The notes: a model not told the origin generated them from the letters alone. Positions 1 to 23,256 are shown, counted from the first letter of the stretch. The stretch: 32,000 bases of DNA from Candidatus Poseidoniaceae archaeon (GCA_943789275.1 CALSTM010000001.1:510001-542000), one strand, 5' to 3'. Made by a program: numbers and translations.

Positions 1-2663
1 CTGTTCGAGAACAATCCGAGTTGGAAAACGCTGTCGTGACTTGAACGGCAATTGATGACATTGAACAATTGATAGAGAATAAACACCGAGAAAGTCATGG
101 TTTGAGCGTAGGCAAATTTCTCCGATGCATACGATTCAGCATCAGCCATTGCGGTAGCATCACCGGCAAGACATGCATCGATATCAAAACCAGTGAATGT
201 AGCAGCATCGGTCATTGGAATCGTATCGCAGGAGGACGGATCAAGACCGCCGCCGGCGAGGAAAAACACGGTCAAAGTGCCAGCAACCATAATGGCTCCA
301 AGCCAGAAAATAAGAGCAACATCACGGAAATTAGGCAAACCTTCGTTCACGGGACGAGGTGGACGTTCCATGACATTCCCATGCTTTTTCTCCACGCCCA
401 AAGCAACAGCGGGTGGACCATCCATGAGGATGTTAATGACCAAAATCTGGGTTGCGGTAAGTGGCAACTCCCAAGGCAATACAAGTGTGGAAAGAACAAT
501 GAGTGCAACTGCAGCAACATTGGTTGAAACTTGGTAACGGACGAAGTTACGTATGTTTTGGTAAATCTTACGCCCTTCTTCAACTGCATGGACAATGTTC
601 GCAAAGTTATCGTCTTGGAGCACCATGTCTGCGGCATCTTTCGCCACATCCGTACCTGCAATGCCCATAGCAATGCCGATGTTAGCCCGTGACAGGGCAG
701 GTGCGTCGTTCACTCCGTCACCGGTCATGGCCACAATTTCACCACGTTCCTGCAAACCGGAAACGATACGCATTTTTTGTTCAGGGGTCACACGAGAGAA
801 AATACTGGCTTGTGTGGCCGCTTCGGCTAATGCTTCGTCGCTCATCGAAGCCAATGCTGCCCCGTTGATTGGTGGGATACCGCCTTCAGTGATGTTGAGT
901 TCTTTACCGATTGCTTCAGCAGTGTACTGTTGATCACCGGTAATCATCTTGACGCGTATTCCGGCTTTCTGGCAAGTGGCAATCGCATCCTTCACTTCAG
1001 ACCGTGGCGGGTCCATGATTCCGACCAGTCCGAGGAAAATAAAACTCGATTCGACCACGTTGACATCATGGATGTCTTCGTCATCATCAAGGCGACGAGC
1101 ACAGAGGGCAAGAACTCTCATGGCTTGATTTGCCATTTCCTTGTTCGCATTCGATGCTTTTTCAAAGTCCTCAGGGGTAATTGGGACAATCTCACCATCA
1201 ACAACTTTCCATTCCACGAGAGGGACGTATCCGCCAGCCCCACCTTTGGAAAAGACCCAGCGTTCGCCTTCATATTCATGGATCACGGACATACGCTTAC
1301 GTGTTGTATCAAAAAAGAACTCGTGAATTCGAGAATGGCGTTGAGAGAATTTTCGAACATCACCGTTTATTTTCCATCCCAGTACTGCACATGCAGAATC
1401 GGTTGGGTCACCAATAGCTTGCCATTGGCCGTCAACTTTCGAAATTTGAGAATTGTGACACAAAGAGAGGCAGGCTGCCGAAAGTCGGAACGCCAAATCG
1501 CTTTGCAAATCACCCATTCCTTCATTGGTTACTTCCGTGCCGTCCAACGAAAGGTTGCCTACTGGTTTGAAACCCTCTCCAGATACGGTGAACGTCCCAT
1601 AGGTCGAACTAAATTGACGTACCGTCATTTGATTTTTAGTGAGTGTACCGGTTTTATCCGAGCATATTACAGTTGTTGAGCCGAGTGTTTCAACTGCCTT
1701 CATACGACGAATAATGGCCTTGTGACGAGCCATGTTCCGCATCCCTAAAGCAAGCGTAATGACCAAAATAATAGGTAATCCTTCGGGTACAATCGCAACG
1801 AAAATGGCGATGGCTATGATGAATTGGTCGACAGCCACTTCCCAAAGATTATCTTCTGCCACTCCGTAAGCAATGATGAGTTCAATCGAAACCAAAAGAA
1901 CGGCCACGACCAAGGCAATGAAACCTAAAAAGCGGCCAAGTGACTCCAGTTTCATCTCCAACGGGGTTTTCGGTGTTTCAGTGTCGACAATGTTGCTCGC
2001 AATACGGCCAAGCTCAGTCTGCATTCCTGTTTCGACGACAATACCAATTGCACGACCGGTCGATACACATGTCCCCATGTAAGCCATGTTGTTGCGGTCA
2101 GCCAAGAGCGTAGTTGCTGGTAGAGAGTCGGTTGATTTGAGAATACTGTTCGACTCACCTGTAAGTGATGACTCGTCAATTTTACACTGATACGATTCAA
2201 TAATTCGTATATCGGCTGGAACATTCAAACCTTCCTCAAGCTTGACAACATCTCCTGGAACTAAATCCGGAGTCGGAATGGACCATTCGATACCTTCGCG
2301 TATGACGACGCATGTCGAAACAGCCATTTGTTTCAATGCATCCATGGCTTGTTCAGCTTGCCCTTCCTGCCAGTATCCAAAAGTAGCGTTCGCTGTGAGT
2401 ACTATGAAGATAAAAATCGCATCCCCAGGATGGTCGGGCTTGATGGCAAGCGCAATGAGAGCCGCACCAATTAACAAGTAATTCAACGGGTCGTTGTATT
2501 GAGAGAGAAACCTGAGTATTGCCGATTTTTTTTCCGGCTCTTTGAGTTTATTCCTACCGTATTTTTCACGACGACTCTGTACTTCACTATTGGATAAACC
2601 ATCGGTGTTGGTGTCGAGATTGTGAAGTGTTTCATCAGAATTCAAGTCATGCCAAGTATTCAC
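1..2663 (-). CDS. Cation-transporting P-type ATPase, type II (Ca2+/cation-like). The C-terminus lies beyond the window start
   Basis: It is missing from the ORF track because no stop codon falls inside the window. Hand translation of the minus strand from GTG at 2663 gives one uninterrupted frame. That frame contains ICSDKTGTLT (phosphorylation site, ~1638-1667), IVPEGLP (TM4), MTGDGVNDAPAL (hinge, ~695-730) and NILMDGPPAVALG (TM6). No ORF in this frame appears in the track, which is consistent with the absence of an internal stop. Confidence 0.9.
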   Translation of the reverse strand, partial: MNTWHDLNSDETLHNLDTNTDGLSNSEVQSRREKYGRNKLKEPEKKSAILRFLSQYNDPLNYLLIGAALIALAIKPDHPGDAIFIFIVLTANATFGYWQEGQAEQAMDALKQMAVSTCVVIREGIEWSIPTPDLVPGDVVKLEEGLNVPADIRIIESYQCKIDESSLTGESNSILKSTDSLPATTLLADRNNMAYMGTCVSTGRAIGIVVETGMQTELGRIASNIVDTETPKTPLEMKLESLGRFLGFIALVVAVLLVSIELIIAYGVAEDNLWEVAVDQFIIAIAIFVAIVPEGLPIILVITLALGMRNMARHKAIIRRMKAVETLGSTTVICSDKTGTLTKNQMTVRQFSSTYGTFTVSGEGFKPVGNLSLDGTEVTNEGMGDLQSDLAFRLSAACLSLCHNSQISKVDGQWQAIGDPTDSACAVLGWKINGDVRKFSQRHSRIHEFFFDTTRKRMSVIHEYEGERWVFSKGGAGGYVPLVEWKVVDGEIVPITPEDFEKASNANKEMANQAMRVLALCARRLDDDEDIHDVNVVESSFIFLGLVGIMDPPRSEVKDAIATCQKAGIRVKMITGDQQYTAEAIGKELNITEGGIPPINGAALASMSDEALAEAATQASIFSRVTPEQKMRIVSGLQERGEIVAMTGDGVNDAPALSRANIGIAMGIAGTDVAKDAADMVLQDDNFANIVHAVEEGRKIYQNIRNFVRYQVSTNVAAVALIVLSTLVLPWELPLTATQILVINILMDGPPAVALGVEKKHGNVMERPPRPVNEGLPNFRDVALIFWLGAIMVAGTLTVFFLAGGGLDPSSCDTIPMTDAATFTGFDIDACLAGDATAMADAESYASEKFAYAQTMTFSVFILYQLFNVINCRSSHDSVFQLGLFSN

Positions 2664-5751: not shown

Positions 5752-6686
5752 CACGGATGGCAGCAACACGTGACGGCTACGGCCAAGCACTCCTCGACCT
5801 CGCGGACAATCCGAAAGTGGTTGTTCTAGAAGCGGATTTAGGTAAATCCACCAAGTCTCTGCATTTCCGAAAGGCTCACCCAGAACGAACTGTATCCTGC
5901 GGTATCGGCGAACAAAACATGCTGTTGGTTGGTGCAGGTATGGCTGCTTCTGGATATATTCCATTCGCCAGTACGTTCGCTATATTCACCGAACGCGCCT
6001 TCGAGCAAATGAGAAACGGAGTTGCACGTCCAAATTTGGCAGTTCACCTTTGTGGAAGTCACGGTGGAACCCACACGGGTACAGATGGTTCATCTGCCCA
6101 ATCCATCGAAGACCTGGCCGTATTCCGGACTCTGCCAAACGTAACTGTTCTTCACCCATGCGATGACGTAAGCACTCGCATTCTCACCGCACGACTGGCC
6201 GAAACGAATTCACCATCCTACATGAGAACTGCTCGTAACAAGACCCCCGTCTTGTACGACGATGTTGACCCTGAGTCCATTCAAATCGGTAAAGGAATCG
6301 AATTGAAAGACGGAAATGATGTTGCCATAATCGCATGTGGGGTTTTGGTTTCTGAATCGCTCAAGGCTGCAGAGATGTTGATTGAAGAGGGCATCAATGC
6401 AAGTGTTATCGACATGCACACGCTCAAGCCACTTGATGGCGCTCTTGTCGACCAAATGGTCGAACGATGCGGGGCACTCGTGACTGCTGAAGACCACAAC
6501 GTCATCGGTGGCCTAGGAAGTGCGGTTGCCGAACACCTTGTTGCCAATGCATTCGCTCCTCTCGAAATGGTCGGTGTGCCCGACCGATTCGGAGAATCGG
6601 GTCAAGCCGACGAAATGTTAGACGTCATGAAGTTATCAGCAAAGTACATTGCCGAGGCTGCGAAGAAAGCAATCTCACGAAAGTGA
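5748..6686 (+). CDS. tkt: Transketolase, C-terminal (pyrimidine-binding plus C-terminal domain) subunit
   Basis: MTRMAATRDGYGQALLDLA..., GIGEQNMLLVGAGMA and HGGTHTGTDGSSAQSIEDLA are typical of the split archaeal/bacterial transketolase B subunit. The ATG at 5748 overlaps the upstream TGA (5749-5751). Confidence 0.9.
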   Translation: MTRMAATRDGYGQALLDLADNPKVVVLEADLGKSTKSLHFRKAHPERTVSCGIGEQNMLLVGAGMAASGYIPFASTFAIFTERAFEQMRNGVARPNLAVHLCGSHGGTHTGTDGSSAQSIEDLAVFRTLPNVTVLHPCDDVSTRILTARLAETNSPSYMRTARNKTPVLYDDVDPESIQIGKGIELKDGNDVAIIACGVLVSESLKAAEMLIEEGINASVIDMHTLKPLDGALVDQMVERCGALVTAEDHNVIGGLGSAVAEHLVANAFAPLEMVGVPDRFGESGQADEMLDVMKLSAKYIAEAAKKAISRK

Positions 6687-6710
6687 AAGTGCTGAAGTTA
6701 CATTAGCGAG

Positions 6711-7091
6711 ATGCACCGAGTGCAACTCATGACGGGTGAAGATACACTTGCTTCAACGATGAAAGCAGTTGATTCCTTTACCAATGAAAGGGACTGGAAG
6801 CAATTTCACACCGTCAAAAATTTGATGGCTTCCGTGTCCATTGAGGCGAGCGAACTCAATGAAACCATTCAGTGGAGCAACCCAAGCATCGAAGAAATTC
6901 TCGATAATCCAAAACTTACCGTTGACATCAGCGATGAATTGGCCGATGTCATGGTCTACTGTCTCCGATTATGCTCAGTTTTAGAGTTCGATCCCGTCGA
7001 GATCATGAAGAACAAAATCGAGAAAAACAGGGCCAAATACCCCGTAGAGAAGGCGAAAGGAAATTCGAAAAAATACACAGACTACGAATGA
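6711..7091 (+). CDS. MazG-like all-alpha nucleoside-triphosphate pyrophosphohydrolase (dCTPase/DCTPP1-like)
   Basis: [16 protein letters not shown]...EASELNE...DELADV matches the MazG/dCTPase signature (ERDW-QFH-KNL, ExxE and ExxD metal-binding helices). The start could instead be the in-frame ATG at 6729. Confidence 0.75.
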
Positions 7092-7146
7092 CGAAGCCAA
7101 TGTTCACAGCAAATACTTGAAAGAGTGCCTTCCACATCCTCGCATC

Positions 7147-7809
7147 ATGGAGTTCTTCCTTGACACAGCCGACGTAGACGAAATTCGTGAAATTGCCGCA
7201 TGGGGTATTCTTGATGGTGTGACCACCAACCCTTCTTTGATTAAGAAAAGTGGTCGTGACTTCAAACAAGTGGTCGCTGAAATTGCTTCGATTTGCGATG
7301 GGCCAATATCGGCAGAAGTAACTGCAATGGACACTGAGGGGATGATTACTCAAGGGAGAGCATTAAAGGCAGAACTTCCAGATAATGTCATTATCAAAAT
7401 CCCGTGTACTCCAGAAGGTCTCGCAGCAACTAAAGTTCTCAATGGAGAAGGAATTGACACGAACGTCACTCTCATCTTTTCCGCGGCTCAAGCGCTTATG
7501 GCTGCTAAAGCTGGTGCAACATATGTATCTCCATTCATCGGTCGTATCGACGATACCGGGCATGACGGAATGACGCTGATTGCTGAAATCATGGACACTT
7601 GGGCAAATTATCCATACATTACCACAAAGGTACTCGCCGCTTCGATACGACACCCGACTCATGTGCTGCAGTGCATCCAACTCGGAGCACATACCGCAAC
7701 AATGCCTGCAAAGACATTCCGCCAACTCATGAAGCACCCACTCACCGATCGAGGCCTTGAAGGATTCATGAAGGACTGGGCAGAAGTAGAAAAGGCAGGA
7801 AATGCTTGA
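7147..7809 (+). CDS. tal: Transaldolase / fructose-6-phosphate aldolase family (short ~220-aa class)
   Basis: [42 protein letters not shown] (Schiff-base Lys context) and [11 protein letters not shown] trimmed the start from 7117 to the ATG at 7147. Confidence 0.9.
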
Positions 7810-7881
7810 TTTTGACGAAGGCTATAGAGAAGGAGGCTTCTTGAAGGAAGGCTTCACCCGATTACTTACGGAGGCCGAGAG

Positions 7882-8457
7882 ATGACATCATCAAATGACT
7901 TGTTGAAGAAACTCTTAGCGGGTGACTTTTCACCTGAAGAAATTGCTGGTGACCCGGTTTTAGTGAGTCTTGCTGACCGTATTTACGGCATCAAAATCTC
8001 TCCAGTCACTCCAGTTAAACCGAGGGACGCTCAATCCATCGATTCTGCCATCGCCGCTCCAATCACAGAAGTGGCTCCCCCTACGGACATGCTGATCGAA
8101 GTGATTGGCGACATTGCCCCGGTAACGGCACTTCCTATGCCGTCAGCCGAAATACCCGTGGCCGCTGAAGTGAGGGTTGCAAAGAAATCCAACAACCTTG
8201 CACGATTGCTCATGGTCGGACTCGGAGCCGTGGTGCTGAACCTCTTCGGTGTTTGGTCGTCGGTGTTCGGTTCTATGTGTGAAGCAGGAGATTTGTGTCC
8301 AACCGATGGGTACACACGCATCAATTTGATGGAGGCATACAAAATCAACACCGGCTACGGTTGGTCAGAGCCTGTTCAAACAGGAATATACGGCATTCCT
8401 GATATCGTGGCAGTCGTTGTACTCACTGGTGCTCTCTTCCTCTCCATGCGAAAGTGA
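7882..8457 (+). CDS. Hypothetical membrane-anchored protein
   Basis: A 191-aa ORF preceded by GGAGG 7 nt upstream of the ATG. It has a soluble N-terminus, a Pro/Ala/Val-rich linker and two hydrophobic helices (LARLLMVGLGAVVLNLFGVW and IVAVVVLTGALFLSM). The helices flank a loop with two Cys. I recognise no family. Confidence 0.55.
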   Translation: MTSSNDLLKKLLAGDFSPEEIAGDPVLVSLADRIYGIKISPVTPVKPRDAQSIDSAIAAPITEVAPPTDMLIEVIGDIAPVTALPMPSAEIPVAAEVRVAKKSNNLARLLMVGLGAVVLNLFGVWSSVFGSMCEAGDLCPTDGYTRINLMEAYKINTGYGWSEPVQTGIYGIPDIVAVVVLTGALFLSMRK

Positions 8458-8468
8458 CCGGTGCTTCC

Positions 8469-8747
8469 ATGGACTTCACTTTCAACTCTGAGACGGTGGC
8501 ATTCCTTGGGATGTTTCTCATTCTCTGCGCTTTTTTTCTTGAGACGCAGAGCATCATACACAGTAAAGCCTCATCGTATCTCTTGCTCATGGCAGTTGGT
8601 TCTGGCATCCTTGCAATACGTGCATACCTGATTGAGGAATGGGCGTTCTTTATTCTGGAAGTCGCGTGGTTCATCACTGCTATGTTGGGTTTCTTTGCTC
8701 GTTCCTCGGCAACGAATTCCAAGAAATCATCTGATGAGATTGAATGA
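8469..8747 (+). CDS. Small hypothetical membrane protein with three predicted TM helices
   Basis: The ORF track starts this gene at GTG 8454, overlapping the upstream stop. I prefer the ATG at 8469, which has GGTG 6 nt upstream. The ~92 aa contain three hydrophobic segments. I cannot assign a family with confidence. Confidence 0.5.
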   Translation: MDFTFNSETVAFLGMFLILCAFFLETQSIIHSKASSYLLLMAVGSGILAIRAYLIEEWAFFILEVAWFITAMLGFFARSSATNSKKSSDEIE

Positions 8748-8827
8748 CTCGGTTCACCTTTTGAGAACTCCATTCTTGTTCTAGTTTGAGCGTCATCTTG
8801 ATGAGCGAGAGATGGCGAGTCCCGCCC

Positions 8828-10357
8828 ATGGGCAAAGGACCGAGTAAGGCCAAGCGTGGCATACCGTCAAAAGCTGACAATTTTACCGAATGGTATCCAT
8901 TCATGGTGGAGGCAGCCGAATTGGTGGACAAGCGGTACCCAATCAAAGGCATGGATGTTTGGAGACCTTACGGGTGGAAGACGATGAAACTCATCGACAG
9001 CCTAACTCATGCAGAGATGGAAAGGACCGAACACGAGGAAGTTCATTTCCCATTGCTCATTCCAGAAAACCTGTTGGAAAAAGAAAACGCTCTGGTTGCG
9101 CGACTCAAAAGGGCACGTGAAGAAGGGGTGGATCCCGATGACCTACGCGATGAGGACGAAGAGGGTGGCTTCAAGAAAGAAGTCTACTGGGTCAAACATG
9201 CTGGAGAAAATGAACTCGACATCCCTATGTTCTTGCGACCAACTTCTGAAACTGCAATGTACACCATGTTCCCACTTTGGATACGCTCCCACAAAGACCT
9301 ACCCTTGAAAGTCTACCAAATGGTCAATACCTTCCGGTACGAAACCAAGCAAACTCGCTCATTCATCCGGGTACGTGAAATTCACTTCTTCGAAGCTCAT
9401 ACTGCGCATGCCGACGAAGAAGACGCCTCACGTCAAATCGAGCAGGACCTTGAAATTGTGAACAACATCATGCACGACCTTTGCCTCCCAATCATCAAGG
9501 CAAAGCGTCCGGTCTGGGATACATTTCCTGGCGCATGGTACACCATTGGCATCGATGCAGTCATGCCAAATGGGAGGACCTTGCAAGTGGCTTCTTGCCA
9601 CCACTATAGAGATCAGTGGGCGAAGGCTTTCGACCTCTCTTACGAGAACTTAGAGGCAAAACAACAATTCTGCCACCAAACAACGTACGGTATGTCAGAA
9701 CGGCTCTTAGGTGCTGTTGTAGGTATGCACGGTGACGAAAACGGACTTATCATGCCTCCAGCAGTAGCACCCTTCCAAGTGGTCATATGCCCAATGATTC
9801 GTAAGAATTCAGAGGTCGATACGGTATCGGTTGCCAACGAAATGGCAACAACACTCCGAGCGAGCGGACTTCGAGTTAAAGTTGATGCTCGAGACATTCA
9901 TGCAGGGCAGAAGTACTACGATTGGGAAATCAAGGGCGTACCACTCCGACTAGATGTTGGTCCGCGAGATATTGCACAAGGTACTGCTTTTGCTGCCCGT
10001 AGAACTGGAGGTAAAGAGCCCATTCCAATGGAGGACCTCTCAAATGCATGTAAAACCATACTCGATGAAATTGCTGAAGAATTGCGAAAGCGTTCATCTG
10101 CCCACATGTCCGATGTCATACAACCGTTGCCTAATTTCACTGAGCAAGACGGAACTTGGGTCATGAACGGAGAAATCGAAGAGGGTAAAATCTACGAGAT
10201 TCCATTTGACGGCACCGATGCTCATGCTGAAGCCATAGAGCGTGCAACAAGCCTGACTTTCCTCGGGGATTCAACCGATGAATACGAAACTGAACAGCCT
10301 TGCCATATGAGCGGCAAAATGACCCGTCGCCGTGTGATTCTTGCCAAAACATACTGA
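8828..10357 (+). CDS. proS: Prolyl-tRNA synthetase, archaeal/eukaryotic type
   Basis: Class II motifs and ProRS strings: FTEWY...RYPIKG, LRPTSETAMY, VNTFRYETKQTRSFIRVREI, QTTYGMSERLLGAVVGMHGDENGLIMPP and the terminal ...ILAKTY with the conserved C-terminal Tyr. The start is uncertain: 8828 ATG is preferred, with 8801 ATG and 8786 TTG as alternatives. Confidence 0.92.
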   Translation: MGKGPSKAKRGIPSKADNFTEWYPFMVEAAELVDKRYPIKGMDVWRPYGWKTMKLIDSLTHAEMERTEHEEVHFPLLIPENLLEKENALVARLKRAREEGVDPDDLRDEDEEGGFKKEVYWVKHAGENELDIPMFLRPTSETAMYTMFPLWIRSHKDLPLKVYQMVNTFRYETKQTRSFIRVREIHFFEAHTAHADEEDASRQIEQDLEIVNNIMHDLCLPIIKAKRPVWDTFPGAWYTIGIDAVMPNGRTLQVASCHHYRDQWAKAFDLSYENLEAKQQFCHQTTYGMSERLLGAVVGMHGDENGLIMPPAVAPFQVVICPMIRKNSEVDTVSVANEMATTLRASGLRVKVDARDIHAGQKYYDWEIKGVPLRLDVGPRDIAQGTAFAARRTGGKEPIPMEDLSNACKTILDEIAEELRKRSSAHMSDVIQPLPNFTEQDGTWVMNGEIEEGKIYEIPFDGTDAHAEAIERATSLTFLGDSTDEYETEQPCHMSGKMTRRRVILAKTY

Positions 10358-10358
10358 G

Positions 10359-11030
10359 ATGGTGCTTGGAATGGTCATGGATGAATGGCTGGAAGTAATC
10401 GAACAAGACCATGAAGCCGCAGTCAATCGTTTGAATCAATCGCTGAATCTTAAGGGAGACGCATTGCTCGATCCAAATGTACCTCCGCATACATACGTAG
10501 GTGACATCGACAGTGTCCCACCTGGTGAATGTGTTCTTCTTTTGGGCATTAACCCGAAACGCAATTTTGATGAAAACTTCCAGAGAGTGAACATCAATTT
10601 GCCAATGGAATGCTTGCACAACTACCGAAATTCAGGAAAAGTGGTTGATTTAGAGAATTGGATTCAGTTTCAAAACCAATATTTCCTTCGAGAAGAAAGA
10701 AATCGTCGATACTTCAACAAATACGGTAGCTGGCTGGGTAAGCACTGGTTTACCGAAACTGCTTCGGACTTTTCTACTGCAGATTGGAAGCAAATGGTTT
10801 GCCACAGGCATTTGGTCGAAGTGGATACTGTTCAATACTTCTCACATAAAACTGGCCTTAACCCAGAACACCTCGCCGACCTTATTCAGACGGACCCCGC
10901 TCTTGGTGCGAACATGCGGTTGATTGAAGCAATCATTAAGAAAATCAAGCCTAAATGGGTACAAGTTACTGGAAAGTCAGGGTGGGTGATTATCGAAACA
11001 ATGCTGTACATCAACGGGATGCGAGAGTAA
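10359..11030 (+). CDS. Hypothetical protein translationally coupled to proS
   Basis: The ATG lies 1 nt after the proS TGA. The 223-aa product belongs to no family I can name securely. It contains VLLLGINPKRN and YFSHKTGLNPE, which loosely recall uracil-DNA-glycosylase-superfamily motifs, but only weakly. Its 3' end overlaps the convergent actin-like gene by 20 nt. Confidence 0.55.
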   Translation: MVLGMVMDEWLEVIEQDHEAAVNRLNQSLNLKGDALLDPNVPPHTYVGDIDSVPPGECVLLLGINPKRNFDENFQRVNINLPMECLHNYRNSGKVVDLENWIQFQNQYFLREERNRRYFNKYGSWLGKHWFTETASDFSTADWKQMVCHRHLVEVDTVQYFSHKTGLNPEHLADLIQTDPALGANMRLIEAIIKKIKPKWVQVTGKSGWVIIETMLYINGMRE

Positions 11031-12036
11031 GGTTCTTCCACATCTCTTCTGGAACTTCCATAGCAAGTCGTAGACCTCCCATAGCACCCAATCGAACAGG
11101 GTCGTCTACCACGTGTACATTGACATCGCCCATATCTGAAAGTTTACGCTCAATCATAGCGCCAAGGCCTTTGATTCCAGAACCGCCACCTGCGAGTACC
11201 ATGTTTCGACGGAATTGGTCGTGATATTCAGGGTTGGAACCAGAAATCAATTCCTTAACATTCTCGACAATCGGATCAACAATCGATTCACATGCTCGTT
11301 GAATGCAATCGGTGATGTCAAGATTCATGGCTTTGCCTTCAATTGAGAAGTCAACCATAACTGGTTCGTCAGGGGATGCTGTTCCTACAAAGGAATACTG
11401 TTCCTTCCATCGTCGTGCCATATCCTTGGTGATTTGTGCACCGCTGTACTTGGATTGAACTTCTTCGATGATTTTTCGGTCAACAAAATCACCTGCGTGA
11501 CCGGTGTGCATTTGGTCGCCAGGACCCGGGATTGTACCGTAAACTCGGCAAAGGTCAGCAGTTCCTGCACCAATATCGATAACGAGTGTGTGTTCAATCA
11601 TGTCCAGAGCGTATGCCACAGCGAAAGGTTCGGAGATAATCATAGCAGCGTTAACTGAACCTGCTGCTGCATCAAAAATTGCGGTCTTGTCGACGTAACT
11701 TGCTTCAGCAGGAGCACCAATGACAGCGACGACGCGGTCGTAGTCTTCTGGGTCTGAAAGTCCAATCAGGTGGGTGATGAAGTGTGCAATGAATTCACGG
11801 TCTTCTTGCGTGTCTTTGATAACACCAAGTTCGAGCGGCCGGAAAAGGTTGAGCGCGAGTCGGTTTTTGAGAGCTTCTTCGCCAAACAAAACATCACGCT
11901 TGAGGAAATTACGGGCAATCGGATCTTTCGGAGTACCGATTACGGTCAACTCTTCAACTTCGTGGCTGTCGGATGAAACCATAACCGAACGGAAGGTTCC
12001 CAAATCAATTCCAATATACAATACGTCTTCTGCCAT
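11011..12036 (-). CDS. Actin-fold ATPase, MamK-like (MreB/MamK clade)
   Basis: Actin-fold motifs IGIDLGT (phosphate 1), LVIDIGAGTADLC (phosphate 2) and LAGGGSGIKGL (adenosine). Long collinear strings also resemble MamK as I remember it: GTPKD, GTIPGPGDQ, KEQYSFVG, NPEY and GDVNV..DDP...GAMGGLRLAMEVPEEMWKNL. The track start at 12045 is a TTG, so I prefer the ATG at 12036. Confidence 0.8.
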   Translation of the reverse strand: MAEDVLYIGIDLGTFRSVMVSSDSHEVEELTVIGTPKDPIARNFLKRDVLFGEEALKNRLALNLFRPLELGVIKDTQEDREFIAHFITHLIGLSDPEDYDRVVAVIGAPAEASYVDKTAIFDAAAGSVNAAMIISEPFAVAYALDMIEHTLVIDIGAGTADLCRVYGTIPGPGDQMHTGHAGDFVDRKIIEEVQSKYSGAQITKDMARRWKEQYSFVGTASPDEPVMVDFSIEGKAMNLDITDCIQRACESIVDPIVENVKELISGSNPEYHDQFRRNMVLAGGGSGIKGLGAMIERKLSDMGDVNVHVVDDPVRLGAMGGLRLAMEVPEEMWKNLTLASR

Positions 12037-12093
12037 GGCACTCAACTATCCTTGCCATTGTGAACTACCTTATGAAGGATGCCACACACATGG

Positions 12094-12116
12094 AAAAACA
12101 CAAGTGGAGTGAAAAA
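12094..12116 (-). terminator. Two T5 tracts (minus strand) in the spacer between the twin-zinc-ribbon gene and the actin-like gene. Candidate archaeal oligo-T terminator
   Basis: The plus strand shows aaaaa at 12094-12098 and 12112-12116, which read as TTTTT on the coding strand downstream of the TAA at 12148-12150. Archaeal intrinsic termination uses oligo-T runs. There is no direct evidence of termination here. Confidence 0.25.
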
Positions 12117-12147
12117 TACAATATTCGTGACGTATGAGTTGAAGAAA

Positions 12148-13164
12148 TTAGCACCATTCTTCACAAGGTTGACAATACCATGCAGCATATTCAGGATAAA
12201 GACGAGCCATTGAACCGCATGATGTACATTCTTTCAGCGTGTTCTCGCCGCACATTTCCAGAACCATTTGGACATGGTAAACATCGTCGATACCGAGTTG
12301 TTGACGCATCGACCAAAGCAGTTGGTCTTCGCTCGGAGAAATGATGCCGTCTTCCAAAACCAGTTCAACAATACTGCGGTAGTCTTCGAAATCTTGTAGG
12401 TTTCGTGCGTCTAAAATGACGCCGTTTTTCTCTGCGACAATATCCGTGCCACCTGGGTCGTCAACAAACAACACCAGAGATTCTGCCTTCAAATCTTCAC
12501 TGCGAAGTTCAAATGAAATTCGAGTACCTTCGAGATTTGCGTAAACTAAATTGGAATTGCTGTTAATGACATTCGTAATTGAACGAGCGGTATTGGCTGC
12601 TGAAGAACCTCGCCTCCAACCGTATGGGTCGGAGACATTGAAGCAATAGAATTCGGTTCCCTTTCCGGGATATTCAAGACGTATTTCTTCTCCACCATCA
12701 AACCCATTCGCAACAATCGTGAGTGCTGCAACTTCAGTTGAGACGATGTTATCATCGTCATCAAAACTAATCATGAGTGGTTTTCGTTCTTCTTTGGCCG
12801 TGTTGTAATGCCCTTTCATGCCGGACATCCACTTGTCTTCCAGTCGAGCAAGGGATGCTTCCTGTTCTTCGGACAAACCGCTTTCGACGCCGAGTACACC
12901 CGCAAGACTGCCACTCTCAATTTCCTTGCGGAACTCTTCAATTTTGGCCTGGTCTTGATGATATGTTGGAATGTCAACAGGCCCAGATGATTCAACATAA
13001 TCTGGATCTATCCATTCGTGTTGGCAAGCAACACAGCTCAAGTAACCGTTCATTGTTGATGGTTGAGATTCTCCACCACATCTCGGACAATCTCCACCCT
13101 CGGTAAAAGCGAGGTTGTCAACGGCCTCGCGTCGTCCTTTGCGTATGTTCCCAAAGCCCGCCAT
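12148..13164 (-). CDS. Hypothetical acidic protein bracketed by two CxxC-x14-CxxC zinc ribbons
   Basis: A 338-aa ORF from the ATG at 13164 (the track gives a longer start at 13221). The N-terminal ribbon is CPRC-x14-CVAC and the C-terminal ribbon is CTSC-x14-CQPC. The central region is acidic and unrecognised. A DGIISPSEDQLLWSMRQQLGI segment recalls TerB-like helical repeats, but only weakly. Confidence 0.6.
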   Translation of the reverse strand: MAGFGNIRKGRREAVDNLAFTEGGDCPRCGGESQPSTMNGYLSCVACQHEWIDPDYVESSGPVDIPTYHQDQAKIEEFRKEIESGSLAGVLGVESGLSEEQEASLARLEDKWMSGMKGHYNTAKEERKPLMISFDDDDNIVSTEVAALTIVANGFDGGEEIRLEYPGKGTEFYCFNVSDPYGWRRGSSAANTARSITNVINSNSNLVYANLEGTRISFELRSEDLKAESLVLFVDDPGGTDIVAEKNGVILDARNLQDFEDYRSIVELVLEDGIISPSEDQLLWSMRQQLGIDDVYHVQMVLEMCGENTLKECTSCGSMARLYPEYAAWYCQPCEEWC

Positions 13165-13225
13165 GAATAACCCACAACTATGGCTTTCTATCAAGGCTTT
13201 GGAGAAGCATGGTGAAAACACCCGT

Positions 13226-14077
13226 TCAATTAAGCGAAGGGATTGCTTTGAGTCCGTACCGAATCAAGCCTTCTTGTGCATAGATCCGTCGAACGCCGAA
13301 CTCAACTTGATCGCCGATAGTTGGAGAATAATCAACATCATCGCAGACCAAAAAAACGCCTCTCGGGCCTTCATCGAACTTAACGAGAAGCGTTTGAATA
13401 CCGCCGAGAATCGGAGCACGAAGTGAGAATTCCGAAGGAGCGCCAGCAGCACTTAATTTCGTCCAAGATTCAACGGTCGCCCTATCGGAGAGAAGACCTT
13501 CCTCACGAGGAAGACGGTTTCCAGAAGAATCCATTTGACGAGGTGGCCAAATGATTTGGCCCTCAAAACTTTGAGATGCCAAGGAAAGCCTTGCAGTTCC
13601 CCCCTCCAGATATTGAGATTGTGAGACATAGGCTCCCTGAGAAACATGTTGCTTCGAACATTCATGCTCCCAAGCGGCATTCATATCGTTGAACAAGTCA
13701 TCATCCATGATTTCAGTCCCAGTTGGTTCATCAAACTCAAAGTGTTCAGCGTCCGACTGAGAAAGAACCAGCGTCGCTTCTTCACCTTCAATAACCTGCC
13801 AGTCTACCGTTGCAGTGGGCAATTCTTCATTCCGTTGGGGTGAGTCAACTGATGTCGACATGAAGATCACTTTTGCATCAATAGATTCAGTCAAATGAAT
13901 TGCTGTGATGTGATGACCTTGGTTTTGCAGATACTGAATGCCAGCAACAGCCATCGTCGTCGAATCACTGTCAGGGCCATAGACTGTACAATCATTGTGG
14001 ATGTACGGCGATTGCAGGAGCAGAGAGTCGTTCGAATACGAAATCAAGTATCCTTTCCATTGGGATGAGTCACTCAT
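13226..14077 (-). CDS. DUF35/OB-fold protein (thiolase-HMGCS scaffold family) with an unknown ~145-aa N-terminal extension and no zinc-ribbon cysteines
   Basis: The C-terminal ~110 aa (WPPR...GTVESWTKL...LVKFDEGPRGVFLV.DD...IGDQVEF..RRIY.QEGLIRYGLKAIP) match the DUF35 OB-fold pattern. The ATG at 14077 overlaps the thiolase stop by 8 nt. I rejected the longer track start at 14353 because it would lie inside the thiolase gene. Confidence 0.7.
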   Translation of the reverse strand: MSDSSQWKGYLISYSNDSLLLQSPYIHNDCTVYGPDSDSTTMAVAGIQYLQNQGHHITAIHLTESIDAKVIFMSTSVDSPQRNEELPTATVDWQVIEGEEATLVLSQSDAEHFEFDEPTGTEIMDDDLFNDMNAAWEHECSKQHVSQGAYVSQSQYLEGGTARLSLASQSFEGQIIWPPRQMDSSGNRLPREEGLLSDRATVESWTKLSAAGAPSEFSLRAPILGGIQTLLVKFDEGPRGVFLVCDDVDYSPTIGDQVEFGVRRIYAQEGLIRYGLKAIPSLN

Positions 14078-15245
14078 TTCGATCCCTCCCAAAGACATGC
14101 ACAGCACATGTTGCACCAGAACCGCCAACGTTGTGTGTAATTCCAATTTGAGCATCACGAACTTGTCGCTCAGATTCAACTGAACCTCGCAGTTGCTTGA
14201 ACACTTCAACTGCTTGTCCCGTTCCAGTAGCACCGAGTGGATGACCTTTCGATTTGAGACCGCCGCTCGGATTAATGCAGACAGAACCTTCGTTACGAAT
14301 GCCTCGCCCATCTCGTGCGAACATACCTCCTTGGCCCGACTCAGCAAAGCCAAGGTCTTCGGTTGCTATCATTTCAGCGACCGTAAAACAATCGTGCACT
14401 TCAGCCAAATCCACATCAGTGGCAGTGATACCTGCAGCAGAATACGCTGATTTCGAAGCCTTTTGCGTGGCGACCAATTGTGTGATTGAAGGTCGGTCAT
14501 GCAATGCAAGACGGTCAGAACCAGCCCCAGAAGAACGTAGCCATACAGGGTCATCGGTAAATTGTCGAACAACATGGTCTGCTGCCAAAATCACACATGA
14601 TGCCCCGTCGGAAGTTGGGCAACAATCGTAGAGAGTGAGTGGGTCTGCAACCATGAATCCACTTGCAGCTTTTTCAAAAGAGACTTGCTTTTGAAGATGT
14701 GCCTGTTGGTTTTCAAATCCATGCATGTGATTTTTAACGCTGATGTGAACCAAATCATCGTGTGTTGATCGGTGCTCGTGAAAATGTCTTCGAGCCATAA
14801 GTGCATATGTTCCAGGGAAAGTCAGACCAGCCAACCGCTCCCATTCCGTATCGCCAGAAACCCCGAGCCAGAATCGCTTGCGCTCTGGTGAAAGGTCGTT
14901 CATTTTTTCAATTCCACCGGCAACTACGACATCAGCTTGGCCACTTTTGATGGCCATCCAAGCATCTCGGAGGGCAAACCCAGATGATGCACATGCATTC
15001 TCCACTCGGCGCACAGGGACACCTTCCATACCAGAATGTTCGGTCAAGAGGGCTGCAGTGTTGCCAAGTTGGCCACCGCCGAAAGCAACACTACCGATGA
15101 AGGCTTCATCCACTTGCCGAGGATCAAAATCTTGGTCAACACTGGCAAATGCGTTCTCTGCGGCTTCCGCCCACATACCTTTGAGGCCGAGCTGATGGTT
15201 ACCGTACTTGGTTTGACCCGCACCGATGACTGCTACATCAACCAT
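14070..15245 (-). CDS. Thiolase (archaeal acetyl-CoA C-acetyltransferase, SCP-x-like class)
   Basis: MVDVAVIGAGQTKYG, VENACASSG (nucleophilic Cys), NPSGGLKSKGHPLGATG and HNVGGSG. I trimmed the start from the track's 15563 to the ATG at 15245, where the conserved N-terminus begins. Confidence 0.88.
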   Translation of the reverse strand: MVDVAVIGAGQTKYGNHQLGLKGMWAEAAENAFASVDQDFDPRQVDEAFIGSVAFGGGQLGNTAALLTEHSGMEGVPVRRVENACASSGFALRDAWMAIKSGQADVVVAGGIEKMNDLSPERKRFWLGVSGDTEWERLAGLTFPGTYALMARRHFHEHRSTHDDLVHISVKNHMHGFENQQAHLQKQVSFEKAASGFMVADPLTLYDCCPTSDGASCVILAADHVVRQFTDDPVWLRSSGAGSDRLALHDRPSITQLVATQKASKSAYSAAGITATDVDLAEVHDCFTVAEMIATEDLGFAESGQGGMFARDGRGIRNEGSVCINPSGGLKSKGHPLGATGTGQAVEVFKQLRGSVESERQVRDAQIGITHNVGGSGATCAVHVFGRDRNE

Positions 15246-15351
15246 GACAAGCCGAGGAAGAACAAGCATTTGATTAAGTCGGTCCTTTTTCAACCCGAAA
15301 CCGTACGAAGCACCCGTAGAGTCTAAGAACGCGCCGTTCCCCGCTACAAAC

Positions 15352-16047
15352 ATGCTCAGACAATGCAGAGCCCACGGACACTTCAAAGGTGCCAATTGCC
15401 CGACCTGTAACGAAGAAGGAAAATTCATCATGAGTGACCGGGAATCGAACTCCCTCGGTCGTATGCTTGCATTGGTTCTTCGACACGCACCAGAAAAGTT
15501 CAATGTTGAAATGGACATCAACGGCTGGGTTAACGCTCGCGAACTCTCAGAATCCATCTCCAAACAACGTCGCCACTACCATTGGCTTCGTGGATGGCAC
15601 TTTGCAGCCATCGCAAACGCTGACGATAAGGGGAGATACCAAGTTGAAGGCGACATGCTGCGTGCAACCTACGGGCATTCCATTGAATTGGAACTCGACC
15701 TTCCAACCGACCAAATCCCGGAAGCTTTGTACTGGCCGTGTGAAGAAGGCCAAGTAGAGACAACAATGGAACTCGGAATCACAGCAGGCGACCGAAAGCA
15801 CATACACCTCTCTCGAAGCATTTCAAACGCTATGGAGGCCGGACACGTCCGAATTCATCGACCAACAATTCTCGAAGTCGATACCGTTCGTGCAATCGCT
15901 GATGGACACATCATTTACCGTGCAGGTAAAACGGTGTTCCTTGTTGACGAAATGCCTGGTGAATACCTCTACAAACTCGAAGATGACGACCCAATGATTC
16001 TGGAAATCGTCGCTCAATGGGAACTTGAAGAGCAAGAAGAAGAGTGA
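15352..16047 (+). CDS. kptA: RNA 2'-phosphotransferase, Tpt1/KptA family, with an N-terminal zinc knuckle
   Basis: LGRMLALVLRHAPEKFNVEMDINGWV, LRATYGHSI and IHLSRSISNA fit the Tpt1/KptA core. The N-terminal CRAHGHFKGANCPTC is a C-H-C-C knuckle. Confidence 0.8.
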   Translation: MLRQCRAHGHFKGANCPTCNEEGKFIMSDRESNSLGRMLALVLRHAPEKFNVEMDINGWVNARELSESISKQRRHYHWLRGWHFAAIANADDKGRYQVEGDMLRATYGHSIELELDLPTDQIPEALYWPCEEGQVETTMELGITAGDRKHIHLSRSISNAMEAGHVRIHRPTILEVDTVRAIADGHIIYRAGKTVFLVDEMPGEYLYKLEDDDPMILEIVAQWELEEQEEE

Positions 16048-16383
16048 TTACCGCTTCTCACCGCAAGATGCGCAGAAGTCAAGATCGTTTTCTAGACGCT
16101 TTCCACACCCCGAACAGTGGTCGTGGCCGAGGCTAAGTGACTCTGCCTTCGATACCGGTTGAGTATGTTCTTCATTTGACATTGAACGTACGAATTGGAA
16201 CGGGTCAATACCATGGTCGACCAATTCCTTGTAACGGTTTCCAAACAAAAGAGCTTCTTGTATTGCCGATTCAATTTGGAATTGCCTCGTTTCTCGGTCT
16301 TCACGGTCTGGAATTTCTTCTGATTCTTCCAAGATTGCTTGGAGATGGCGCATGAAGTCGCTCAGAGATGGGCCGTCGGACAT
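16048..16383 (-). CDS. Small hypothetical protein with a C-terminal zinc ribbon
   Basis: A 111-aa ORF with an acidic helical N-terminus and a C-terminal CSGC-x10-CASC. Its stop codon abuts the kptA stop with 0 nt between them (convergent genes). Confidence 0.5.
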   Translation of the reverse strand: MSDGPSLSDFMRHLQAILEESEEIPDREDRETRQFQIESAIQEALLFGNRYKELVDHGIDPFQFVRSMSNEEHTQPVSKAESLSLGHDHCSGCGKRLENDLDFCASCGEKR

Positions 16384-16486
16384 GTTGCTTGGTCGGTGCG
16401 GTGGGTCATCAATCCTTGGTGGAAAAATGTTGATTCCGGAGAAAATCGAGGGGTATGCTCATCAGCGATTTGCTCATGGGGGTATC

Positions 16487-17311
16487 ATGCGTGACAGGGT
16501 GGTCATCAAATGGGGAGGTGGACTCATCACCGACAAATCTTCACTTTGCACTCCGAATCTCGAAGTTTTGAAACAACTGGCCGAAACTGTTGCTGAATGC
16601 CATGCTGAAGGTCAAGAAGTCATTCTCGTTCACGGTGCAGGCTCATACGGCCACCTTCGAGCAAAGAACTGGAGACTCAATGAAGGACACATCCCCGAAA
16701 TGCCGCAGCCTGAAGGAAGTATTTGCGCCACGCAAAGAGATGCTGTAGAACAAGTCCGTCGAGAAATGCTGGAATTGAATCAACATGTCTGTACAGCATT
16801 GGCTGATGCTGGTATTTCGAGCATCGTTCATCCACCCCATCTATGGGCAACCAACACAGGAATGGATTTCCAAGGCGACCTCAAGAGATTCACTCTTCGA
16901 GATGATCACAAAATCCACATTACCTTTGGTGATGTTGTCGAAGTACAAGGTGAACAACAGTTTGGTATCTTATCGGGCGACGACTTGGTTGTTCGATTGG
17001 CACTTGAGTTACCTCATGTCAAGCGTCTAGTGTTTGCCGTTGGCGGTGTTGACGGATTGCTTCGTGTGCCGCCAGAATTTGCTACAGAAGACGACCTCAT
17101 CGAGAAATGGTCGCCTGATATTGAGTTTGAAGGCGTACACCAATCCGACATCGACGTCACAGGAGGGATTGGTTTGAAAGCTGCGAGGGGTGCACATGTT
17201 GCTGCTCGAGGAATCGAGGTTTTGATGGTCAACGGTGGGATACCGGAACGGGTTTTGGCAGCCATGCTCGGAAATCCCGTTCGTGGAACCATTGTCACCA
17301 ATAAACAGTGA
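16487..17311 (+). CDS. ipk: Isopentenyl phosphate kinase (amino-acid-kinase fold)
   Basis: VVIKWGGGLITDK, ILVHGAGSYGH, ILSGDDLVVRLA, VGGVDGLL and IDVTGGIGLK are the IPK signature strings. The alternative ATG at 16427 has GGTGG 4 nt upstream and would add 20 aa. Confidence 0.85.
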   Translation: MRDRVVIKWGGGLITDKSSLCTPNLEVLKQLAETVAECHAEGQEVILVHGAGSYGHLRAKNWRLNEGHIPEMPQPEGSICATQRDAVEQVRREMLELNQHVCTALADAGISSIVHPPHLWATNTGMDFQGDLKRFTLRDDHKIHITFGDVVEVQGEQQFGILSGDDLVVRLALELPHVKRLVFAVGGVDGLLRVPPEFATEDDLIEKWSPDIEFEGVHQSDIDVTGGIGLKAARGAHVAARGIEVLMVNGGIPERVLAAMLGNPVRGTIVTNKQ

Positions 17312-17411
17312 ATTGAAAGGTATTTTTCTATCCAATTTGGATTCCTTTTCTCAACCCATAATACAGAACTCTTCATGTAGCGACCGCGAATCCGTTGGAG
17401 TTGGGGTTCAC

Positions 17412-19169
17412 ATGAGCGGATACGACATCACAGACGTTCCAAACATTGAACTGTCTGATTCTGAGAAAGATTTACTCGACTCATTGGGTGCAGACTCAAT
17501 ACAGTCTACCCTTATGTCCGAAGCAATTATTGCGGTCGATGAGCAAGACATCGTTCTCGGACCAATGTCCAAAATTTCGGCTCACCGTGACGCAGGAGCA
17601 TACCATCGTGCATTCAGTGTCCTCCTCTTTGACTCCAAGAAACGATTGCTGCTTCAGCGCCGTGCCCACGACAAGGTTACTTTCCCTGGTGTGTGGGCAA
17701 ATTCGTGTTGCTCTCACCCCCTTCACAGCGATGAAGAACTGGCAGAAGATGGAGCAATGGGTGTCAAAACAGCAGCCATACGGAAATTGGAGCAAGAACT
17801 CGGTATCGCTCCTGAACTGTTTTCTCCTGACGACTTTACCTTTATGACAAAGATGCGCTATTCAGCCCGAATGAACGAAACGTGGATTGAACGTGAAATT
17901 GACCACATACTGGTTGTTCAGAAGGATGTTGAACTCAAAATTAACCAAAACGAAGTTTCCGATACGATGTGGGTCTCACACGATGAGTTGGAAGAAATGC
18001 TCATCGAAGAAAACCGTACAAACGGTTCTGTTGCCCCTTGGTTTCGGTGCATAGCCGCCCGAATTATGAACGACGATTGGTGGAAAGCAATCGGCGACAC
18101 AGATGCACTTGACGCATTAAGTGATGAAGAGATTCACGACATGGGTGATGTGACGCACATGCTCCCTGAGGCAGAAGGTGCTGGACTGAACATTTCAGTG
18201 CTCGAAGTGAAACCCCTTGTTGAAGAACGCATCATGACCAGTCTGATGGCCTCTCGCCATGAACGGCTTGCTGCAGCGATGACTCACCTCATTCACGGTG
18301 GTGGAAAGCGCTTGCGTGCTACTTTACCATGGCTTGTTGGAAAGGCTGTAGGAGACTCTCACTCTGGTATGCTTGATGTGGGAGCTGCAATCGAGACGGT
18401 ACACAATTTCACATTGGTTCACGATGATATCATGGACGATGATGAAATTCGACGAGGTCGAAATGCTGTCCATATCGAGTTCGACCTTCCTACAGCAATC
18501 AATGCTGGTGATGCTATGCTGGCCATTGCTTTCGAAAGGTTGGTACAAGCAGAAGGCTTGCAAGCAGACGACGTTGCACCACTCGTCAACAGAATCGCTT
18601 GGATGGTTCGTCGAGTCAGTGAAGGCCAGCAAATGGATATCGAGTTTGAAGATGAACTTGCAGTGTCTGAAGATGATTACATTGAGATGATTGAAGGAAA
18701 AACTGCAGTTATGTTCCTCACATGTGCTGAAATAGGTGCACGGATGGCTGGAGCTGACCAAGAAACCATTGAATGCATGGCGGATTGGGGACTTGCAGTT
18801 GGACTGTGCTTCCAACTTATGGATGATTTGATTGATGTTCTTTCTGATTCTGATGTGCTCGGCAAGCCGGCTGGCTCAGATGTGGCCCAAGGGAAGCGTA
18901 CGTTAATGGTGATACATGCACTTTCGCAACCGGATTCAGAAGACAAGCAAACGCTGCTTGCTGCATTAGGCAAAGGCGAAGAGGCTGATGCGCAATCCAT
19001 TGATGCGGCATTAAAGGCATTAGGGAACCTAGGCTCTATCGACTATGCTAAGCAACGAGCAGTCGATTACCATGCAAAGGCCCACGCCTGTTTGGATCGA
19101 ATCCCGCAAGGACCAGCAATGAAGGCTCTTCGTGAACTAACGGACTTCCAATTGAAACGTATTAGTTGA
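17412..19169 (+). CDS. Fusion protein: type 1 isopentenyl-diphosphate isomerase (eukaryote-like) + short-chain trans-prenyl (geranylgeranyl) diphosphate synthase
   Basis: One uninterrupted 585-aa frame. The N-terminal half (~17514-18095) has HRAFSVLLF, LLLQRRAHDKVTFPGVWANSCCSHPL, EREIDHILVV and PWF...WW. The C-terminal half (~18198-19166) has GGKRLRA, FARM DDIMDDDEIRRG (18423 onward) and SARM FQLMDDLID. Phe sits five residues before the FARM, the position that determines a short-chain product. Confidence 0.85.
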   Translation: MSGYDITDVPNIELSDSEKDLLDSLGADSIQSTLMSEAIIAVDEQDIVLGPMSKISAHRDAGAYHRAFSVLLFDSKKRLLLQRRAHDKVTFPGVWANSCCSHPLHSDEELAEDGAMGVKTAAIRKLEQELGIAPELFSPDDFTFMTKMRYSARMNETWIEREIDHILVVQKDVELKINQNEVSDTMWVSHDELEEMLIEENRTNGSVAPWFRCIAARIMNDDWWKAIGDTDALDALSDEEIHDMGDVTHMLPEAEGAGLNISVLEVKPLVEERIMTSLMASRHERLAAAMTHLIHGGGKRLRATLPWLVGKAVGDSHSGMLDVGAAIETVHNFTLVHDDIMDDDEIRRGRNAVHIEFDLPTAINAGDAMLAIAFERLVQAEGLQADDVAPLVNRIAWMVRRVSEGQQMDIEFEDELAVSEDDYIEMIEGKTAVMFLTCAEIGARMAGADQETIECMADWGLAVGLCFQLMDDLIDVLSDSDVLGKPAGSDVAQGKRTLMVIHALSQPDSEDKQTLLAALGKGEEADAQSIDAALKALGNLGSIDYAKQRAVDYHAKAHACLDRIPQGPAMKALRELTDFQLKRIS

Positions 19170-23105: not shown

Positions 23106-23256
23106 GCGACCCTCAAAGCCCATGTGAATGTATGCATGAGCGTTCGATTGAATTACCAAGATTTGCATCTCACTTTTCTCCAAATGTCCGATTTTAGGCA
23201 GTATTGTCACCCCTTGCATAAACAAGGTTCAAACCATGCGTCAATGTGGACGAACC

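Follow-up and report, generated by a model that had tools for sequence, protein, structure and literature searches.

Work on archaeal actins has so far dealt with crenactin, Ta0583, salactin, volactin, lokiactin and methanogen MreB. Crenactin is clustered with lineage-specific arcadins, one of which, arcadin-2, regulates the filament (the 'arcade' cluster of Pyrobaculum; PMC5173319), and the nearest subfamily of salactin is MamK (PMC10746226), the magnetosome actin of Magnetospirillum. A further MamK relative, BeeR, comes from non-magnetotactic bacteria and is defined by a disordered N-terminal domain (PMC11929497). Here we describe a gene pair in a 32,000-nucleotide (nt) stretch of a Candidatus Poseidoniaceae genome (GCA_943789275.1 CALSTM010000001.1:510001-542000), to which we refer in its full length as the window. 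One gene, actin1, encodes a MamK-like actin-fold ATPase; the other, twinZn, encodes a protein with two zinc ribbons. The host is an archaeon of Marine Group II (MGII; Poseidoniales), in which MGIIa corresponds to Poseidoniaceae, the window's lineage, and MGIIb to Thalassarchaeaceae. Its nearest homologues and loci carry Poseidoniaceae or Poseidoniales names, and the window holds archaeal core genes (ProRS, aEF-2, S7, exosome Rrp4/41/42, SBDS, transketolase, transaldolase and a run of isoprenoid-lipid genes). Our literature searches found no paper on actin or MamK in MGII or Poseidoniales, and none describing a MamK-like actin in archaea.

We find that actin1 stands for a real branch of the MamK-like actins in archaea, under strong constraint and not described before. 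Taken as a whole, the explanation that we favour, and that we hold to be somewhat probable, is a MamK-like filament actin of MGII with twinZn as a companion acting on the filament. According to it, actin1 would be an order-wide MGII actin whose transcription starts at a conserved TATA-like promoter of its own. The protein would most probably bind and hydrolyse ATP and form filaments of the MamK type, which in MamK are parallel, non-staggered double helices. The job of these filaments would lie outside magnetosomes, either in positioning or segregating a cellular component or in shaping the cell or membrane. twinZn would be a lineage-specific companion, adaptor or regulator, whose conserved, intrinsically unstructured residues ~101-143 would contact actin1 while its two zinc ribbons hold something else. 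The physical or functional link between twinZn and actin1, considered by itself, we propose more tentatively, at somewhat less than even chances.

actin1 among the MamK-like actins

actin1 occupies positions 11011..12036 on the minus strand (open reading frame [ORF] 11011-12045, start ATG at 12036) and encodes 341 amino acids (aa) plus stop, the length of nearly all its homologues. A first-pass annotation, read from the window's sequence without database searches, had called it MamK-like rather than generic MreB, and our comparisons bear this out. The actin-fold nucleotide-binding motifs that it named are all there (IGIDLGT, VIDIGAGTADLC and LAGGGSGIKGL), and the strings that it quoted as MamK-like (G.PKD, DIGAGT.D.C...GT.PGP.DQ, KEQ.SFVG, PEY and GD.NV...DP...G..G.LRLA.E.P...W..L) all appear in the HMMER alignment of actin1 to MamK (PDB 5LJW and 5JYG). 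This sharing goes far beyond chance, since the full-length alignment has an expect (E) value of 3.7e-76. The alignment is collinear over residues 2-336, at about 40% identity and with no domain gained or lost. The catalytic E143 and D161 of MamK are kept as E136 and D154, and the two proteins also have in common a C-terminal W-containing motif.

Profile and structure searches gave a consistent ranking. Among NCBIfam models, MamK (NF040964) scored 360.2 bits with actin1 (E 9e-108; model positions 1-331 of 335), followed by BeeR (212), MreB (92) and salactin (69), and FtsA and Hsp70 left only trace scores. Among PDB sequences, MamK 5LJW (E 3.7e-76) was followed by BeeR (6e-44), MreB (~1e-12) and eukaryotic actin (~1e-4). 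An AlphaFold2 (AF2) model of actin1 built from 42 sequences (predicted local distance difference test [pLDDT] 90.4) had as its best fold match the MamK filament subunit 5LJV, with template-modelling (TM) scores of 0.90/0.94 and a root-mean-square deviation of 1.9 Å; the next matches were BeeR (TM 0.84), MreB (~0.79) and actin (~0.77). MreB, salactin, crenactin-type actin and Hsp70 are all far more distant from actin1 than MamK is. actin1 does not reach the salactin cut-off (NF053533; 68.5 vs 400 bits) or that of BeeR (NF053558; 212 vs 530 bits). BeeR, a three-stranded tubular actin of Verrucomicrobiota (8R2N), resembles actin1 in being MamK-related and in having non-magnetotactic hosts, and it is the second-best PDB and NCBIfam match (154 and 212 bits), but actin1 has no N-terminal extension or disordered N-terminal domain, starting 5 residues before its first strand (which begins at residue 5).

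Homologues of actin1 are publicly annotated as 'rod shape-determining protein MreB' or as 'hypothetical'. As the MamK-like assignment beats generic MreB, the public 'MreB' label is imprecise, and it appears highly improbable that actin1 is an ordinary MreB guiding envelope growth as in bacteria. Apart from the database name, such a role could appeal to the best Pfam match, MreB_Mbl (PF06723; 91 bits, gathering score 27), ahead of Salactin (60.5) and Actin (29), and to the position of both MGII actin types beside lipid-synthesis genes (thiolase here, PcrB in the second type described below), which could hint at membrane growth. However, Pfam has no separate MamK model, and its broad MreB_Mbl therefore takes in MamK-like sequences. 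The NCBIfam MreB models, in turn, fall far short of their cut-offs (PRK13927, 91.6 vs 293 bits; TIGR00904, 81.3 vs 365.75 bits) where MamK scores 360, and MreB trails MamK both in E value (~1e-12 vs 4e-76) and in TM score (0.79 vs 0.90). Among the window ORFs scanned, there was no family match to mreC, mreD, rodZ or the peptidoglycan elongation machinery; to our knowledge, archaea have no peptidoglycan.

Two features of the protein weigh against a MamK-type filament. The first is its NF040964 score, which lies under the curated MamK cut-off (360.2 vs 400 bits). When ten relatives were scored with this model for calibration, true MamK or MamK-like proteins (P0272, 508; an AMB-1 MamK-like protein, 472) and proteins of Nitrospira (425) and Gemmatimonadota (412) came inside the cut-off, and an ANME-2 protein (371), the MGIIb orthologue of actin1 (367.5) and the second MGII actin type (330) came just below it. 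The second is the position of MamK A278, which is Asp in the MGII actin; A278D is the substitution in a PDB MamK entry titled as a non-polymerising mutant. Because 26 of 78 MamK-like representatives naturally have D or E in this column, we set the Asp aside as an argument against polymerisation and treat it as a caution only.

Judged by its sequence and modelled fold, actin1 very probably polymerises into filaments. That it is instead a non-polymerising actin-fold ATPase, chaperone-like or kinase-like and sharing no more than a resemblance with MamK, strikes us as very unlikely. This alternative could draw on the A278-equivalent Asp and on our literature searches, which found no filament data for any archaeal MamK-like protein. 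Against it stand the collinear, full-length MamK alignment without inserted or deleted domains, the negligible scores of Hsp70 and kinase models, the AF2 model, which is nearest to the MamK filament conformation, and the behaviour of both characterised relatives, MamK and BeeR, which polymerise (PMC11929497). Conservation is also very high. Between the window and a Thalassarchaeaceae locus, actin1 is 80.6% identical, compared with 68.5% for ProRS, 55% for twinZn and 52% for KptA, and conservation above that of an aminoacyl-tRNA synthetase would fit a polymer with many constrained interaction surfaces.

Relatives of actin1 were found in 218 GTDB species genomes, and the distribution and synteny counts given here use the best 80 loci. 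These are essentially all from MGII: 78 are archaeal-titled, and the remaining two (L044 and L076) lie in metagenome-assembled genomes (MAGs) titled bacterial ('Verrucomicrobiales bacterium' and 'Rhodobiaceae bacterium'). L044 keeps the full MGII gene order, and both are probably mis-binned MGII contigs. An all-against-library search gave 150 cluster representatives at E < 1e-30, none of which, outside MGII, was more than 48% identical to actin1. In a neighbour-joining (NJ) tree of 78 full-length domains with Kimura correction, the MGII actin1 proteins formed a clade with 100% support, its sister was the second actin type (P0247; 97% bootstrap), and canonical MamK was placed elsewhere. Deeper nodes had less than 30% support and, as the tree is NJ with Kimura correction only, they are not to be trusted. 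The description of actin1 as a 'MamK-clade filament' in the first-pass annotation stands in that MamK is its nearest characterised relative, and needs qualifying in that the tree places actin1 in a clade of its own within MGII, not nested among the magnetosome MamKs, with a score of 360 bits where 400 are called for. As had also been claimed, magnetosome genes are missing: no window ORF scanned matched a Mam, Mms or Mad family, and the host is a non-magnetotactic archaeon. The neighbour of actin1 is twinZn, whereas that of MamK is MamJ or another Mam protein.

The twinZn protein and its pairing with actin1

The main evidence for a link between the two genes is that the pair is constant in both MGII families while flanking genes change. 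twinZn (12148..13164, minus strand) lies directly upstream of actin1 on the same strand in all 79 Poseidoniaceae loci that have upstream DNA (the 80th has none). The adjacency, first noticed in the window, extends to Thalassarchaeaceae, in which the upstream 336-aa gene (L081-L083) is a full-length twinZn orthologue at 55% identity. On one side of the pair, a DUF35-like gene occurs in part of the Poseidoniaceae only and is not found between thiolase and twinZn in Thalassarchaeaceae or in the L061 lineage. On the other, the gene downstream of actin1 may be orf229, a convergent gene for a membrane protein with a zinc ribbon, a gene of 92 aa, or one of 233-244 aa on the same strand with SIR2 after it. 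The twinZn-actin1 junction is the sole junction of the neighbourhood that never varies.

The twinZn product was originally described as an acidic 338-aa protein with zinc ribbons at both ends and no recognisable family, and this description was upheld. Counted from the conserved MAGFG start, which is present in 71 of 78 loci (longer N-terminal extensions are not conserved), it has 338 residues, an isoelectric point of 4.35 and no transmembrane-like segment. Two similar CxxC-x14-CxxC ribbons span residues 26-47 and 313-334. The N-terminal ribbon (residues 23-55; 13000..13098, minus strand, as are all twinZn segments given here) follows a basic tail, and its four Cys (26, 29, 44 and 47) are invariant or nearly so (AF2 pLDDT ~80). 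In a profile search of PDB sequences, it gave a weak L37Ae/eL43-like match (E 0.004), and nothing else matched. Residues 101-143 (12736..12864) combine a column identity of 0.87-0.89 with an AF2 pLDDT of 28-57, and we regard them as a candidate partner-binding segment. They are followed by a central alpha/beta domain (residues 144-255; 12400..12735; pLDDT 63-84) and by a three-helix segment with the second ribbon (residues 256-306 and 307-338; 12151..12399). The three-helix segment carries an invariant DGIISPSEDQ and is weakly TerB-like (sub-threshold, best E 5e-4); the Cys of the second ribbon are 313, 316, 331 and 334. The whole model has a pLDDT of 66.8. Pfam and NCBIfam searches assigned twinZn to no family and returned only sub-threshold zinc-ribbon, TerB and ENT matches. 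Its homologues form 291 clusters, and among the best 120 all those bearing names are from MGII.

The beta-beta-beta-alpha-beta-beta order of the model and the neighbouring thiolase raised the idea that twinZn is a divergent DUF35 protein. This was rejected, as hhalign against the neighbouring DUF35-like family gave a probability of 0.3% and there was no Pfam match to PF12172 or PF01796. A separate DUF35-like gene is already present next to the thiolase (13226..14077).

Each gene of the pair has promoter-like sequences of its own. The spacer between them measures 111 nt in the window and 97-160 nt across the aligned loci. Within it, a TATA-like box, CTTCATAAG (12069..12077, minus strand), lies 34-41 nt upstream of the actin1 ATG. 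In the window and 79 related loci, its CTTCATAA core keeps one register to the ATG with at least 90% conservation; the box occurs as a single copy in the 32-kb window and is likely the actin1 promoter. A second TATA-like box, TTGATAGA (13187..13194, minus strand), lies ~30 nt upstream of the twinZn ATG, with the consensus caAAGc.TT[C/G]ATAGAAAG conserved in 69 distinct ATG-anchored upstream sequences. The spacer also carries two T5 tracts on the coding strand (12112-12116 and 12094-12098; span 12094..12116, minus strand). Archaeal transcription can terminate at oligo-T tracts, and these two are possible terminators of twinZn. The tracts and the spacer length are as the first-pass annotation gave them, and its caveat that the genes may be transcribed separately gains weight from the two conserved boxes.

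The strict TATA-like pattern has 7 matches in the window, of which 3 are upstream of ORFs. One of these three ORF-proximal copies, the same TTGATAGA box, precedes a family-less 141-152-aa ORF (69-527, plus strand) by 33 nt from its TTG start. We considered whether the motif is a regulator site common to actin1 and twinZn, which is unlikely because boxes of the TTCATAA and TTGCATAAA types also stand before other genes in the window; given these looser versions, the boxes are probably ordinary TATA boxes of the lineage. Most Poseidoniaceae loci (L006-L080) have a conserved palindrome, TTCTATAGAA, 10-35 nt downstream of the twinZn stop; the window (12037-12147) and L001-L003, L005 and L008 lack it. 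A role as a second TATA-like box, as a terminator or as a binding site is conceivable.

Several observations weigh against a partnership of twinZn and actin1. The thiolase and KptA genes upstream are as syntenic as actin1, so that adjacency alone is weak evidence of a link. Co-transcription is unsupported, since each gene has its own conserved box and two T5 tracts lie between them. twinZn is, moreover, packed closely behind the thiolase/DUF35-like gene, with 61 nt between them in the window and, from the MAGFG start, an inferred ~20-40 nt in L061 and MGIIb, and gene callers sometimes lengthen it to a 4-nt overlap with the upstream gene. No PDB structure matched the twinZn model below E 1e-3 (Foldseek), and family and fold searches gave no likeness to the known actin adaptors ParR, MamJ, AlfB or arcadins, the arcadin sequences not being compared directly.

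These points lend substance to the alternative that actin1 is as described and twinZn unrelated to it, their order simply being inherited. twinZn would then belong with the thiolase and DUF35-like (mevalonate pathway) genes or would serve, for example, in nucleic-acid binding. The short spacers and possible overlap at its 5' side are in keeping with this, as are the isoprenoid-lipid genes around it (IPK, IDI/GGPPS, UbiD-like), its weakly L37Ae-like N-terminal ribbon, and the promoter-like box and longer spacer of actin1. All the lineages examined also have a thiolase before twinZn, including those in which the type of thiolase has been replaced. On the other hand, the box of its own ~30 nt upstream of its ATG argues against twinZn being just the final gene in a thiolase operon; twinZn has no homology to DUF35 by hhalign; the N-terminal extensions that create the overlap are not conserved (71 of 78 start with MAGFG); and the junction with actin1 alone never varies. 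We therefore regard an unrelated twinZn as a serious possibility, if still short of an even one. A role for twinZn as a partner of actin1 is plausible because MamK-like actins commonly have an adjacent or fused partner, and twinZn differs from the partners elsewhere in the clade in not being a coiled-coil protein.

Surrounding genes

In the window, the DUF35-like gene (13226..14077, minus strand) encodes an OB-fold protein without a zinc ribbon (OB_ChsH2_C 19 bits, weak). Its start overlaps by 8 nt the stop of an archaeal-type acetyl-CoA acetyltransferase, the thiolase (14070..15242, minus strand; start approximate, from ~390-aa homologues). Both are context genes, and the DUF35-like gene is probably not part of the actin system. 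The thiolases 5' of twinZn belong to two non-orthologous types, ~25% identical (window 14070-15563 vs L061:3358-4866 and L081:3738-4865). The window has the archaeal Thiolase_C_1 type, together with the DUF35-like protein that lost its zinc-ribbon cysteines; L061 and MGIIb have the classical Thiolase_N/C type without a DUF35-like gene.

On the 3' side, orf229 (10341-11030, plus strand), which is without a family in Pfam or NCBIfam, overlaps the 3' end of ProRS by 17 nt and the convergent 3' end of actin1 by 20 nt. It has a counterpart, among the loci that we examined, in the window's closest relatives alone (L001-L003 and L005, but not L004). In other loci, a convergent gene right after the actin1 stop encodes a polytopic membrane protein of 190-200 aa whose C-terminal zinc ribbon has the pattern CPxC...CPxC (L081:7024-7599, L061:7032-7604 and L098:5618-6226, all minus strand). 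This gene occurs in Thalassarchaeaceae and several Poseidoniaceae lineages, being in range in 34 of ~100 loci, and is not present at the window locus. Its product is a candidate membrane anchor.

The actin1/twinZn pair has isoprenoid-lipid surroundings (window 13226-19169 and 23236-24528), comprising the thiolase, the DUF35-like gene, an isopentenyl-phosphate kinase (IPK)-like AA_kinase, a Nudix/polyprenyl-synthetase (IDI/GGPPS) fusion and a UbiD-like decarboxylase. PcrB, which abuts the second MGII actin type, is likewise a lipid gene. These neighbours of both actins may be a coincidence or may hint at a membrane-related role.

MamK-like actins beyond magnetosomes

MamK-like actins outside magnetotactic bacteria were already in databases, from Nitrospira, Gemmatimonadota, Acidobacteriota and ANME-2, the last placing the family in other archaea as well. 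They belong to the same broad family as actin1 (41-45% identical), are uncharacterised and are usually annotated as MreB. They differ from actin1 in their partner, which is a giant coiled-coil gene in ANME-2, and a coiled-coil fusion in the nearest non-MGII relatives, and not twinZn. The ANME-2/Methanosarcinales actin (L087:6001-7077) is followed after 25 nt by a 1940-aa repetitive coiled-coil gene (7103-12925) with no Pfam match. In these nearest non-MGII relatives (P0244-P0259), which are 700-1230 aa long, a coiled coil and a long disordered linker are fused to a MamK-like actin domain at the C-terminus. L102 has such a fusion (7944-11570) ahead of a second actin (11753-12793), four genes of the Roadblock/LC7 kind and one for an Arf-like small GTPase. 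A further MamK-like actin (P0251, 45% identical; L103:1890-2936) is located inside a chemotaxis operon, in the order CheA/CheW, CheC, CheD, actin, unknown gene, CheC.

The second MGII actin (P0247/P0518; loci L084-L097) has 334-336 aa and is 45% identical to actin1. It comes from the same archaeal order, is the NJ sister of actin1 and is MamK-like by score (330 bits), and on these sequence comparisons it is a probable paralogue. It differs in its locus, which has the constant order S8 peptidase, actin, 426-aa coiled-coil gene and geranylgeranylglyceryl phosphate (GGGP) synthase PcrB, without twinZn (for example L084, actin 6001-7008 and coiled-coil gene 7101-8381). It is even more conserved than actin1, with 96-99% identity between Thalassarchaeaceae- and Poseidoniaceae-named copies and ~84% for more distant order-level variants. 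When contig records and locus tags were compared for the two actins, the sole overlap was one shared metagenome sample (ERZ27294709).

Other actin systems offer looser parallels. As with crenactin and the arcadins, an archaeal actin gene stands beside a lineage-specific gene, but the likeness is one of analogy only: crenactin belongs to another actin subfamily (the Pfam Actin score of actin1 is 29 bits), and twinZn resembles no known family. ParM/ParR/parC and AlfA/AlfB likewise join an actin-like ATPase gene to a small neighbouring adaptor gene. In contrast to these, the actin1 locus is chromosomal and among core genes, actin1 is not ParM-like, and in twinZn there is no ribbon-helix-helix and no other known adaptor domain that binds DNA. 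No centromere-like direct-repeat array was present at 10800-13500, where we found merely short two-copy chance repeats.

A wider proposal can be built on these comparisons, though we consider it unlikely to be right in all its parts. MGII would have two paralogous MamK-like filaments, each with a dedicated partner, in which twinZn would be a new adaptor or regulator for actin1 and the coiled-coil protein would serve the second actin. In many lineages, twinZn would work with the convergent membrane zinc-ribbon protein, and the filaments would be linked either with segregation or with the biogenesis of membranes or lipids.

MGII are globally abundant, uncultured ocean archaea whose cell biology is essentially unknown, and actin1 with its invariant, family-less neighbour provides a concrete, clonable entry point into it. 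The MamK-like filaments emerge as a wide family, for the most part unconnected with magnetosomes, whose members recruit a variety of zinc-ribbon or coiled-coil partners, encoded next to them or fused to them, and this breadth bears on how MamK was recruited to magnetosomes. If the proposal of two filaments is true, one of the most abundant groups of uncultured archaea in the ocean would turn out to have an actin cytoskeleton not described before.

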